From Tubiluchus corallicola (Eukaryota > Animalia > Priapulida): a stretch of 64,000 nt of DNA. The notes under the pieces were generated by a model. It saw only the letters and a program-made list of their open reading frames with translations, was not told the DNA's origin and made no database searches. This document shows, piece after piece, positions 30,266 to 45,624 of the stretch. Position 1 is the stretch's first letter; each line of letters starts with the position of its first letter. The position numbers and the translations under genes are program-made. The stretch is from positions 248,001 through 312,000 of the forward strand of contig JAQGDQ010000163.1 of NCBI GenBank assembly GCA_030141605.1, given 5' to 3'.

Positions 30266-33200
30266 CTATTTTTTCCAAAGCCCTAGCGCATCACCTATTG
30301 TGTGTGCTAGTGTCTTTGCTGTGCCTGAAAATGCATCGGCTATTCAAGTCAATAAAGTCATTTTAGGACTTTATAAATCTACTAACTACAGTAGGCCTAT
30401 GCTGTTGTTGCTGGGTCGATCAAGTATGAGGAATGTGCTATAGCATTATAATTATGTCAGCTGTAGGACATTCAATGGCCGTCAATGCTGCATTTTTCCT
30501 ACCAGCACATGTTAATTAGGCTTACAATCTGCTATTCTTGCTACACAGAATTAAACAAAAGACTTACTCATAAATACTCAAAGAATTACCCAGTAGACTA
30601 CTCAAAATAGCAGTTGTTCCACTGTTAAAACATTTTTATCCTACTGACTTTGTACACCTATATCTAAAGACAATTTGAACTGATCTACAGTAGGGGTGAG
30701 CATTCTCTACCAGAAATCGAATTCGAATCGAATCAAGTATGTGATATCAAACCGAATTTCAGTATTTCGAATTCTAATCTTTGAAATGTTTTCATACCCT
30801 CAGTAAAGAGCGACTTTACAAAGATGATGCATAGACCCTATTACTCGATTTTGTTCTGCAACGAAATCACTAATAGTTAGTTTGAAAATTGCACACAGAA
30901 ATCGCTACTAAATTGTGCTAATTGCGTGATATCTAAAACGTTTTAATGACAAAACAACGTGTGTGGTTGAAGTGCTGAATTATTCGAATTAAAAAACTCG
31001 TTAGAATCGAATTCGAACGTTCGATGCACATCCCTAGTCTGCAATAACAGTTAGAAATGATGAAGAACCAAGCTTTTGATACTGAGTGTGTAACATTAAC
31101 AGTTGCTTGCAAAATTCTATACAAAGCATTATGGCAAAACGAAATTACTAATTACCTGATTCAGGGTCAGAGGAGTCCGAGGAGTCAGGAAAGTATACAA
31201 TTTTCCAATGAGGTGACCTTATGTGAGGCACTTCTAATAGTGTTTTTAGTTCTTGTCCGAACTCCTTCATGTGTTCTCGCTTCTGTTCGGGACCAATAGA
31301 TTGCAATTCAGTAAACAGGAGAATATTTGCTGGATATTCAGCCAGGACACGATAATCCTAAAAAGTATTTAGTAAATCAGTGAAAAGTGACCTGCTTTAC
31401 AAATTTATCCCACAGAACTAGAAGAATAAATTTTTCGCAGTTTATGGAAACACTCTTACTGTAGTTGGTAATCACTAATTACCCAATTTTAATACAGAAC
31501 CTTCATTTAGGTTTATACTTTTAATTTCTAGCTTTTCTTTCAGTTCTTGGAGTGAAATAATGGTTGTAGCACTTTAATTAGCGAAAATTAATTTCATTAT
31601 CTTTGTGAAGTAAACCACAATGATTTATTAACGTCTGGCATTCACAGTCATGATCTGATTGTCAGTCAATATTTATGTTTGAAAATTCAACGATCATTTC
31701 GTTAAAAATTAATAAAAAATACACTTTTTGCGAGCATCAACTTTACTTAATTTTAAGTATTTGTGAGCTAAAAAACCTTGATCCCTGCACTTTAGAAGTA
31801 GACAAGTAGTTATAGTTTGTTTATCACTCTCACCTTGCAATCGTACGAAAATTGATAAACTGTCCGGCAGCCATATTCCCTTTCACGTCCGCCTCGCTTT
31901 AACTTTTTACTTGGTGATTTGTCAACTGCTTTTAGACTTCCATCTACTTTACTTAAGTCAGAGAAAACATTTGCATTCTCGGGAAGAATCATAATGAATT
32001 CAGTGCGAATTTCACAATTTATGGGCTCCTTTTTGAGTTTTTCTTTATACTCATCTAAGTTGTCTTTTGTGAAACCATCTGAATAAAACAGTTTGTTACG
32101 AGATTTATGGGAAAACATACTGTCAAATAAACGAAAAACTGTAAATTTTGTTGTCTTTCCGCTGTAGTTAGGGGGTGTGCATTTTCTATCAGAAAGCGAA
32201 TTCCAATTCCGATTCTGAATCGAATTCGCATTCAGTTTTAAAGAGTTTCGAATCACTAATAAAAAGCAATCCCACGCACATTGCTTGGCTTTGTTCTGCA
32301 GTAAAAACACTAAAATTTGTTTAAGAATTGTGCATAAAAATCGCATCCAAAATTTGCTAATTGCAAGATGTTTCAAACCATTTTAATGACAAAGAAATTT
32401 TGTAGTTAAACTGGTCAGTTATTCGAATCCACAATTTTAGCTTTGAATTCAATTCGAACTGAAAGGTGGCTGGTAAAAATGACGCAGGTAAAAGTAGCAC
32501 ATGAAATAATTGCACAGGAAAAACTGCCACCAATGGAAAAGTAGGTAAAAATGGCACAGGTAAATATGGCACAAATGGAAAAGTAGAAAAAATGGCAAAT
32601 CTGTTATACTGCACAATTGATTTCTATTGATACGTGTACGTATACAACTGATGCCAAGTCACCTTATAAGGTTATGCACATTAATAAGCAAAAGGTATAG
32701 ACAGTGATATATACACAGTTTTACAAGCGAGACTCTCGAAACTGAACCGGTAGTATGTAGAAGTCTACGAGGAGACAAAAAAGTACTAAATGTGATGTCC
32801 GATACGTCAGTCTAGAATATAAGAACTACCGAACAGCATTGCAACCCATTTTAATATCGCTGACTTTGTATTCTCGTATGATTTTTGTGTAGGACCCGTA
32901 CTTAGGCTGCATTAATAGCTTAATTTAGTTAATTGCTTATGTTAATTGAATGAGTCATTAGTTAATTTATTTACTATAACAGAGCAAGTTGTAAGTGAAG
33001 ATATATGAGCATACATCTAGTTAGCTCTGGGAAGGGTCCCACCTCATACCTGTCCTAAATCTCCTTTACAAGCAGGCAAGTGATTGGTTATACACTCAAC
33101 TGAACAGGCTAGCTAGCCAGTAAACCGTCGTGTTAAAGGACAAGGTCATCCAGTTTTACTTGTTCTAGGAATTGAAACCAGGTTCAACACTGTTTGTCGA

Positions 33201-45200: not shown

Positions 45201-45624
45201 AGTATTACGTCAGGTGAACGTACAATAGCCAAGAGCGCACGCGACGAAGATAAGCGAAACTGGGCCTGATTAGTAAAAGAATGGGCTAATCTCCGGCTGC
45301 TTTTCTCATTGGTGACGGGTGCATATGTTTATCATCAAAATACATCTGCCATTTCAGTCTCATCATGAGAATTGTCATTGATAATGAGTAAATTTTTACC
45401 CTGAAACTAGCTTGGGTAACCACTTACAAATGTGCTGAAATGCATAACAAAAAGTATAAATTTACATAGTACTAATCATTATCTTGAGCGTATTCGTAAG
45501 CATGCCGAATTAACTCACCATTTACGATATGTTCCTTTATCCCAGCTACAGCCATATCCAACGCCTTTGCTACTTTCAAATTATTTCCGTAATCCTTACT
45601 CTTTGAGTGACTAACTTCCACCAT
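30266..45624 (-). CDS. HEPN (CXorf38/DUF4559-like) - STING - STING fusion protein, 15 coding exons, 681 aa, no transmembrane segment
   Basis: Exons 5'->3': 45624-45519, 44845-44757, 43346-43233, 41725-41576, 41463-41344, 39542-39396, 38957-38816, 38334-38117, 37762-37579, 37423-37328, 35334-35255, 34817-34724, 32078-31834, 31357-31156, 30324-30266. All introns are GT-AG, phases match, total 2046 nt with no internal stop. The start codon has context ATAATGG. The weakest junctions are the AAG acceptors at 38957 and 35334. Confidence 0.8.
30691..31036. mobile_element. ATTCGA-rich MITE with short TIRs
   Basis: Left TAGGGGTGAGCA versus reverse complement of the right end TAGGGATGTGCA. Internal TCGAATTCGAATCGAATC repeats. 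A second copy starts at 32169. Confidence 0.7.
32169..34250. mobile_element. Nested transposon stack: ATTCGA-MITE containing an AAAAATGGCAC foldback element (32466-34212) containing a ~1-kb TG...CA insert (32756-33797)
   Basis: The outer parts match 30691-31036 and the middle layer matches 28978-29885. The inner segment is absent from that copy, begins TGTAG and ends CTACA. Confidence 0.65.
35625..35870 (-). mobile_element. Probable RTE-like LINE 3' remnant
   Basis: Degenerate translation (..RTRREAVSRIDLRLPPHH..QNWH) resembles the C-terminal end of RTE ORF2. Weak. Confidence 0.35.
37328..38957 (-). other. Domain 2: first STING (TMEM173) cyclic-dinucleotide-binding domain
   Basis: VIEGLAANYYYGYLALIMP ~ human VAHGLAWSYYIGYLRLILP; SKKLLILCPESC; lid RAGQVKRDY ~ RAGIKDRVY; VVMEGAATLQTL ~ CVLEYATPLQTL; AEKFCQKVNKLL ~ AKLFCRTLEDIL; HCILLPY ~ NCRLIAY. 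Confidence 0.92.
37873..38020. repeat. (GA)n microsatellite inside a STING-domain intron
   Basis: About 74 perfect GA units. Confidence 0.98.
40300..40925 (+). mobile_element. Decayed RTE-like LINE 3' fragment
   Basis: Frameshifted motifs YLGSLL, LYNSELW, IDAFQR..LGIRWPRKISNDELY and WIGH, ending in a short (GAT)n tail. Confidence 0.7.
42420..43050 (+). mobile_element. Degenerate Tc1/mariner transposase C-terminal remnant interrupted by a ~400-bp element (42538-42941)
   Basis: LDLNPAKHGIVKDIVE..KFVRHL / QDVMDDVEFDSDLF..RGFHT*Y resembles the DLNPxE and GGHTxY motifs. Contains stops. Confidence 0.45.

Follow-up and report, generated by a model that had tools for sequence, protein, structure and literature searches.

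A predicted HEPN-STING-STING protein in a priapulid genome, a candidate cyclic-dinucleotide-gated RNase

The window analysed here, 64,000 nucleotides of contig JAQGDQ010000163.1 (positions 248,001 to 312,000 of the forward strand; assembly GCA_030141605.1) from the priapulid Tubiluchus corallicola, contains on its minus strand a 15-exon gene at window positions 30266-45624, whose predicted product joins an N-terminal HEPN-like domain to two tandem STING domains, A and B. The gene may encode a soluble RNase of innate immunity that is gated by cyclic dinucleotides, a reading to which a probability of roughly 0.45 is given; the evidence base is one genome, and the protein is predicted from its sequence. 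A sequence-only reading of the same DNA had already proposed the HEPN-like plus two-STING architecture, and the analyses below support it and add that the protein has no transmembrane part.

Joining of the 15 exons (Table 1) gives 2046 nt encoding 681 amino acids and a stop, with no internal stop codon, from an ATG at 45624 to a TAG at 30266. All 14 introns are GT-AG, so that the exon chain and open frame described earlier are borne out when the exons are rejoined. Splice sites were scored with a rough matrix trained on other sites of the same gene: typical sites score 7-15 bits, while the four left-out sites are weak. For example, donor 37328 and the acceptor of exon 11 at 35334 score 3.4 and -0.8 bits, respectively, though exon 11 ranks first among 98 frame-keeping candidates in its interval. 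A four-exon module with entry phases 0-1-0-1 occurs twice, in exons 7-10 and in exons 12-15, which points to an origin of the STING pair by genomic duplication; introns of human STING are presumably placed alike. The first AATAAA 3′ of the gene is at 29242, and a STING profile run over 2843 six-frame fragments found no second copy of the gene within the 64-kb window. Contigs of a genomic run (X1), which may come from the source sample itself, match the regions of exons 11, 13, and 15 with zero differences. Among the joints listed for this run and for a second one (X2, which we guess to be RNA), there was no exon-exon joint, which is evidence neither way, and the matches of X2 are confined to intronic repeats. 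Such high-copy intronic repeats lie at about 40270-41100, 42500-43070, 30530-31050, 32370-32630, and 36310-36840, where contigs of run X1 reach depths of thousands, and a CT microsatellite occupies 37873-38020.

The two STING domains are the best supported part of the protein. Pfam was scanned on 14 single-exon fragments (exon 15 left out), and STING_LBD (PF15009) matches five of them, exons 7 (E = 1e-4), 8 (2e-9), 9 (3e-6), 12 (0.026), and 13 (5e-5), of which exons 8 and 9 alone pass the curated cut-off. An independent STING profile, made entirely from database proteins without the window sequence, detects at E < 0.1 six of the 2843 six-frame window fragments; these minus-strand fragments are exons 7, 8, 9, 12, 13, and 14, and they follow each other as in the gene model. 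On the joined model, this profile gives 104.0 bits for STING A (aa 257-438) and 61.7 bits for STING B (aa 493-672), and the earlier claim of two tandem STING domains is thereby confirmed. The order of A, charged linker, and B stands as well, although a helix encoded by exon 10 aligns with the last STING helix: domain A thus extends into exon 10, and the linker (approximately aa 457-494, about 38 aa) is shorter than had been implied. A and B share 25% identity in local alignment (39/154; score 105, against 45 for the best of 300 shuffles) and 21% in a multiple alignment. A tree was built of 21 domains, namely A, B, eight other animal STING domains, and 11 bacterial ones. In it, both A and B group with the animal domains against the 11 bacterial ones with a support of 100/100, so that a bacterial origin was rejected, while the branching order of A and B among the animal domains is poorly determined. 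No transmembrane segment was found in the 681 aa, the top 19-residue hydropathy being 1.45 on a helix that belongs to STING B itself; the protein therefore lacks the four N-terminal transmembrane helices of canonical TM-STING. A TIR domain was not detected either, as judged from Pfam on the 14 exon fragments and from BLAST against Lingula TIR-STING, which is significant over the STING parts only.

Both domains retain the core of the ligand pocket. A lid arginine and a pair of stacking aromatics are described as universal in STING pockets, and the linkage preference as set by Ser/Asn and Thr/Ser at the pocket floor (PMC9980059). STING A retains Y270, R344, R350, and Y352, and STING B retains F507, R575, R580, and Y582, the lid arginine and tyrosine of B aligning with the lid of Sp-STING1. 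At the floor, N265 of A aligns with the Asn of Sp-STING3, and its equivalent in B is S502, both being residue types that are retained at this place; the Thr/Ser place is taken by Ala in both domains (below). As predicted from these alignments, the pocket core is kept while the floor is unusual and asymmetric (N265 versus S502). Conservation of the lid arginines and aromatics at an A-B identity of only 21-25% points to selection on the pocket.

The N-terminal domain is very probably a HEPN domain, as judged from its motif and the close context of it. The whole protein has one R-x4-6-H motif, R198-N-x-x-A-H203, which retains the two catalytic positions as well as the Asn that follows the Arg. 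A Swt1-like HEPN profile was built from 25 bacterial domains found in 24 of 301 genomes, all of which (25/25) carry R-x4-H. This profile scores 19.5 bits over aa 157-220, against 11.6 bits for the best of 2000 shuffles, and exon 6 is the only one of the 2843 window fragments with E < 1. Furthermore, exon 3 holds five of the six cysteines of aa 1-245, including a CxxC, together with H97. CXorf38 has been assigned to the Swt1-like group, its HEPN domain being interrupted by a zinc ribbon (PMC3710099), and the Cys-rich insert, a putative zinc ribbon, fits this description of the family, to which the domain likely belongs. Overall, the motif with its close context, a weak Pfam match (below), and the Cys-rich insert make the HEPN assignment moderate rather than firm.

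CARF-HEPN Csm6/Csx1 and RNase L are RNases of HEPN type that respond to a nucleotide second messenger by becoming active, and the active site of HEPN RNases is built from two motifs. A comparable working can be proposed for the present protein in steps ranked by falling confidence: one mRNA, HEPN fold, ligand binding, pseudo-dimer, and oligomer-driven cleavage. All exons would be contained in one mRNA, the N-terminal part would adopt a HEPN fold, and the STING part would bind a cyclic dinucleotide made by a cGLR or by bacteria. Domains A and B of one chain would then form a pseudo-dimer whose single pocket is made asymmetric by the Asn on A and the Ser on B, and each receptor unit would carry only one HEPN half-site, leaving the RNase off. 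This step is suggested by the layout: one HEPN attached to one STING would always be paired by the STING dimer, while two diverged STINGs with a linker of about 38 aa could in principle let one chain, with one HEPN, make the whole pocket by itself. With one HEPN per receptor unit, the RNase would need ligand-driven oligomers. In a bacterial TIR-STING (SfSTING), the ligand closes the lid, nucleates filaments, and switches on the effector (PMC9402430); likewise, ligand would close the lids here, side-by-side oligomers would form, and pairs of HEPN domains would make composite active sites and cut RNA, leading to translation arrest or cell death. The gated RNase becomes a doubtful proposition once the single-chain pseudo-dimer is included in it. 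Equally speculative is the specific form in which the asymmetric pseudo-dimer reads a mixed-linkage cyclic dinucleotide and its polymerization pairs HEPN into the active RNase. As another geometry, A may pair with A′ and B with B′, giving two pockets.

Several points weigh against the gated RNase and can be followed through the steps. The HEPN-STING junction, intron 6, has the weakest splice sites in the gene (donor 39396, 2.6 bits; acceptor 38957, -1.0 bits), and exon 6 can read through to a stop near 39315. Together with an in-frame ATG at 39014, upstream of exon 7, with the existence of effector-less STING-STING proteins (P0001 and P0003, below), and with the absence of an orthologue from the searches made, these features would suit two neighboring units, alternative isoforms, or a young and little-used chimera rather than one chain. 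Such a separation is improbable, since all 15 exons are open without stop or frameshift and intron 6, with 438 nt and neither AATAAA nor ATTAAA, leaves little room for two genes; the gap between the read-through stop and the ATG is about 300 nt and is likewise free of both signals. In addition, similarity to full-length STINGs sets in only 3-5 residues into exon 7 (E 0.1-0.3; chain residues 141-143), placing the acceptor at or near 38957, and it covers the connector helix that in other STINGs follows an N-terminal domain. Shorter acceptors at 38931 and 38902 have higher matrix scores and were set aside, as they would remove the connector similarity. There are 34 frame-keeping donor-acceptor pairs at intron 6, and the exact position of the predicted exon 6-7 joint is uncertain; a fused HEPN-STING product is nevertheless very likely.

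As for the HEPN fold, the profile signal depends on the motif itself. When the motif is masked, the score falls to -2.1 bits, which is matched or beaten by 964 of 1838 scored masked shuffles, and exon 5 alone gives 0.5 bits; hence the flanks contribute little HEPN signal of their own. Nor did the profile recover the first HEPN helix (rank 691 among about 2000). Pfam DUF4559 (PF15112) and HEPN_DZIP3 have no match on single exons (29-50 aa), PADLOC and NCBIfam have none on the five exons scanned, and Pfam HEPN_Swt1 matches exon 6 below the cut-off (E = 0.18, profile positions 82-107 of 115). The earlier label of a CXorf38/DUF4559-like domain carrying RNNHAH is kept for the R198-H203 motif and left without a Pfam match above cut-off for the family name; of the profiles expected for the two halves of the protein, STING_LBD was matched on single exons and DUF4559 was not. 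The motif might then have arisen by chance in another helical, Cys-containing domain, because shuffles of the N-terminal region contain R-x4-H in 15.7% and R-N-x3-H in 1.1% of cases. This explanation is quite improbable: none of 2000 motif-keeping shuffles reaches the domain score of 18.0 bits (best 15.7), the HEPN_Swt1 positions agree on the family with the Atlas leads for exon 6, which are HEPN families with scores below 0.9, and the Cys-rich insert fits the published CXorf38 description. Exon 5 gave no Atlas leads, and searches of PDB with exons 6 and 9 gave no useful match. Among 401 bacterial genomes, DUF4559 gave two sub-cut-off matches, one of them of low complexity, and neither was included in the profile.

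A more serious doubt concerns function. Both domains have Ala (A375 and A605) in the pocket-threonine column, which we take to be that of human T263, and STING B lies on a long branch (2.17), fitting relaxed and altered specificity alike. The fusion may thus be real and still not act as a ligand-gated RNase, with HEPN serving as an adaptor or RNA-binding module or with the STING pair being a degenerate decoy or scaffold that does not bind nucleotide. Some eukaryotic HEPN domains, including that of Swt1, have been proposed to be non-catalytic, and the activity of animal CXorf38 and DZIP3 HEPN is predicted from the motif only (PMC3710099; PMC9646362); even for oyster TIR-STING, the role of TIR has been called unclear (PMC10732462). 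Against such a protein stand the retention of R198, H203, and the Asn after the Arg, and the lid arginines and stacking aromatics kept in both domains despite their low identity, so that it is possible but, on balance, unlikely.

Searches for relatives were shallow, and no orthologue emerged from them, so that conservation of the motif within the fusion is not demonstrable, a further point on the negative side. A HMMER search with exon 8 against 1.84 billion protein representatives returned three matches, none with a HEPN domain: a STING-STING protein (P0001), Lingula TIR-STING-TIR-STING (P0002, XP_013404162.1), and a tick STING-STING protein (P0003, Ornithodoros XP_064457177.1). As this search missed ordinary STINGs, a distant HEPN-STING could escape it likewise. 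P0001 has a one-residue lid insertion that is common to both STING domains of the window. Word-based protein searches had no orthologue among the 63 candidates for exon 13 and the eight for exon 8, nor did the word search made for alignment A1 (7999 candidates), which was confined to proteins of 731-2085 aa and has 681 aa outside its range; scans of metagenomes with exons 8 and 6 gave no match. One match in genome_contigs (L001; 18 residues outside the motif) and three plasmid matches (E 8-9) were taken as chance. In bacterial STINGs, the Swt1-like profile found HEPN in none of 11 Bacteroidota STING frames from 401 genomes; three of the bacterial frames (L037, L038, and L039) have only 235-265 aa between stops, which leaves no room for a TIR domain. 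P0001, P0003, and another protein of Ornithodoros turicata (P0006) are STING-STING proteins without transmembrane helices or effector domain. Taken with the Lingula protein and the window gene, they suggest that the STING domain has been duplicated in animals on several separate occasions. Among the papers listed by a literature search on tick STING, none was on the STING-STING form, and AlphaFold2 on the tick protein, run with three rows, gave a pLDDT of 38 and a pTM of 0.31, which has no bearing on the pseudo-dimer.

Exchange of effectors on STING has precedent. Bacterial STINGs are fused to TIR, TM, deoxyribohydrolase, alpha/beta-hydrolase, and trypsin domains (PMC10732462), and a fungal PNP-STING has been described (bioRxiv 10.1101/2025.09.04.674280). 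In animals, TIR-STING is known from oyster and Capitella (PMC6723221; bioRxiv 10.64898/2026.04.20.719644), and oyster proteins have two STING domains plus TIR (PMC11103948). HEPN, for its part, is an N-terminal effector of invertebrate NLRs (PMC9646362; PMC9334734). A HEPN-STING fusion was not found in the literature and databases searched, whose reach was limited (few subscription papers), and none of six spellings of the fusion matched a paper. The word HEPN does not occur in the main texts of PMC6723221, PMC10732462, and bioRxiv 10.1101/2025.09.04.674280, nor does STING in those of PMC3710099 and PMC9646362, and HEPN, DUF4559, and CXorf38 are absent from five supplements of PMC10732462, including a 557-row Pfam scan of eukaryotic STING proteins, and from six supplements of PMC9980059. 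The novelty suggested earlier for the architecture can thus be kept, within the reach of these searches, for HEPN-STING and has to be dropped for tandem STING, known from oyster, Lingula, and tick: the combination sets a new effector on a sensor layout that is already known.

The closest known forms are the animal TIR-STING and multi-STING proteins (Crassostrea gigas PDB 6WT6, the oyster class with two STING and two TIR domains, and Lingula XP_013404162.1), which are also soluble effector-plus-STING proteins of animal-type domains without transmembrane helices, with two STING domains in some members. In these, however, the effector is TIR, with one TIR per STING in Lingula, whereas the window protein has a lone HEPN-like domain in front of two STINGs that are joined directly to each other. 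CBASS TIR-STING (Cap12), fungal PNP-STING, and the bacterial hydrolase and peptidase fusions similarly join a cyclic-dinucleotide sensor to an enzyme, but the bacterial fusions have a single, bacterial-type STING and no HEPN, unlike the animal-type, intron-split domains of the window. The effector-less STING-STING proteins (XP_064457177.1 and P0001) share two STINGs directly linked by 15-30 aa and the lack of a transmembrane part; they have no N-terminal enzyme, and their domain pairs are 54-55% identical versus 21% here, as from separate duplications. With CXorf38 and Swt1-like HEPN (PMC3710099), the N-terminal domain shares R-x4-H with Asn, Swt1-like similarity, a Cys-rich insert, and an N-terminal effector position in an immune-type protein, and differs in giving no DUF4559 match on single exons. 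The likeness to Csm6/Csx1 and to RNase L, whose KEN domain is classed as HEPN (PMC3710099), lies in the proposed switching of a HEPN-type RNase by a nucleotide messenger. Their sensors are CARF or ankyrin-pseudokinase and their ligand is oligoadenylate, with no homology outside HEPN. The window protein would therefore resemble TIR-STING and Csm6 in working and is a member of neither.

Invertebrate STINGs are without the interferon-inducing tail, their role is an open question, and TIR is the sole enzyme partner among animal STING fusions in the literature covered. If the proposal is true, animals, as bacteria do, would couple STING to a nuclease that is itself toxic, and the protein would be the first direct output from cGLR-STING to RNA cleavage in animals, a CBASS-like effector in one protein. 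It would also be a transcription-independent counterpart of OAS-RNase L in an invertebrate and a ready nuclease switched by a cyclic dinucleotide, and would provide a ligand for testing the CXorf38/Swt1-type HEPN domains of animals, for which RNase activity has so far been predicted from the motif. Another question becomes testable at the same time: whether the tandem STINGs of oysters, Lingula, and tick form single-chain asymmetric pockets.

Table 1. Exons of the predicted HEPN-STING-STING gene, in window coordinates
Exon	Position	Strand	Residues and features
1	45519..45624	-	ATG, aa 1-36; possible first HEPN helix, missed by profile
2	44757..44845	-	aa 36-65; splice sites strong
3	43233..43346	-	aa 66-103; Cys-rich insert C68, C72, C77, C83, C86, H97; candidate zinc ribbon within HEPN domain
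4	41576..41725	-	aa 104-153
5	41344..41463	-	aa 154-193; aligns with pre-motif helix of Swt1-like HEPN, worth about 2 bits
6	39396..39542	-	aa 194-242; putative HEPN motif R198-N-x-x-A-H203 (39530-39513) and next helix; donor uncertain
7	38816..38957	-	aa 243-290; STING A connector and dimerization helix (N265, Y270); weak acceptor
8	38117..38334	-	aa 290-362; sheet and lid of STING A (R344, R350, Y352)
9	37579..37762	-	aa 363-424; STING A (E372; A375 in pocket-threonine column)
10	37328..37423	-	aa 424-456; acidic loop, last helix of STING A
11	35255..35334	-	aa 456-482; charged linker between A and B; exon with the lowest certainty
12	34724..34817	-	aa 483-514; dimerization helix of STING B (S502, F507)
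13	31834..32078	-	aa 514-595; sheet and lid of STING B (R575, R580, Y582)
14	31156..31357	-	aa 596-663; STING B (E602, A605)
15	30266..30324	-	aa 663-681, then TAG; final STING B helix

Other features of the window surround the gene, and the introns together with nearby C2H2 zinc-finger and p53-family genes mark the host as an animal. Just upstream of it lie broken relics of LINE-type reverse transcriptases (46795-48187, minus strand, and 50375-51417, plus strand; Pfam RVT_1). On its other side are a gene for an array of C2H2 zinc fingers (21317-23395, minus strand; open frame of 692 aa) and a multi-exon protein kinase gene (10630-18501, plus strand) with a long last exon at 16606-18501, for which Pfam was blank on the two frames scanned and which, from its motifs, we take to be NUAK/AMPK-related. 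At the far end, exons for a p53-family DNA-binding domain (61532-63282, plus strand; Pfam P53, E = 5e-14 and 3e-22) belong to a gene that leaves the window.

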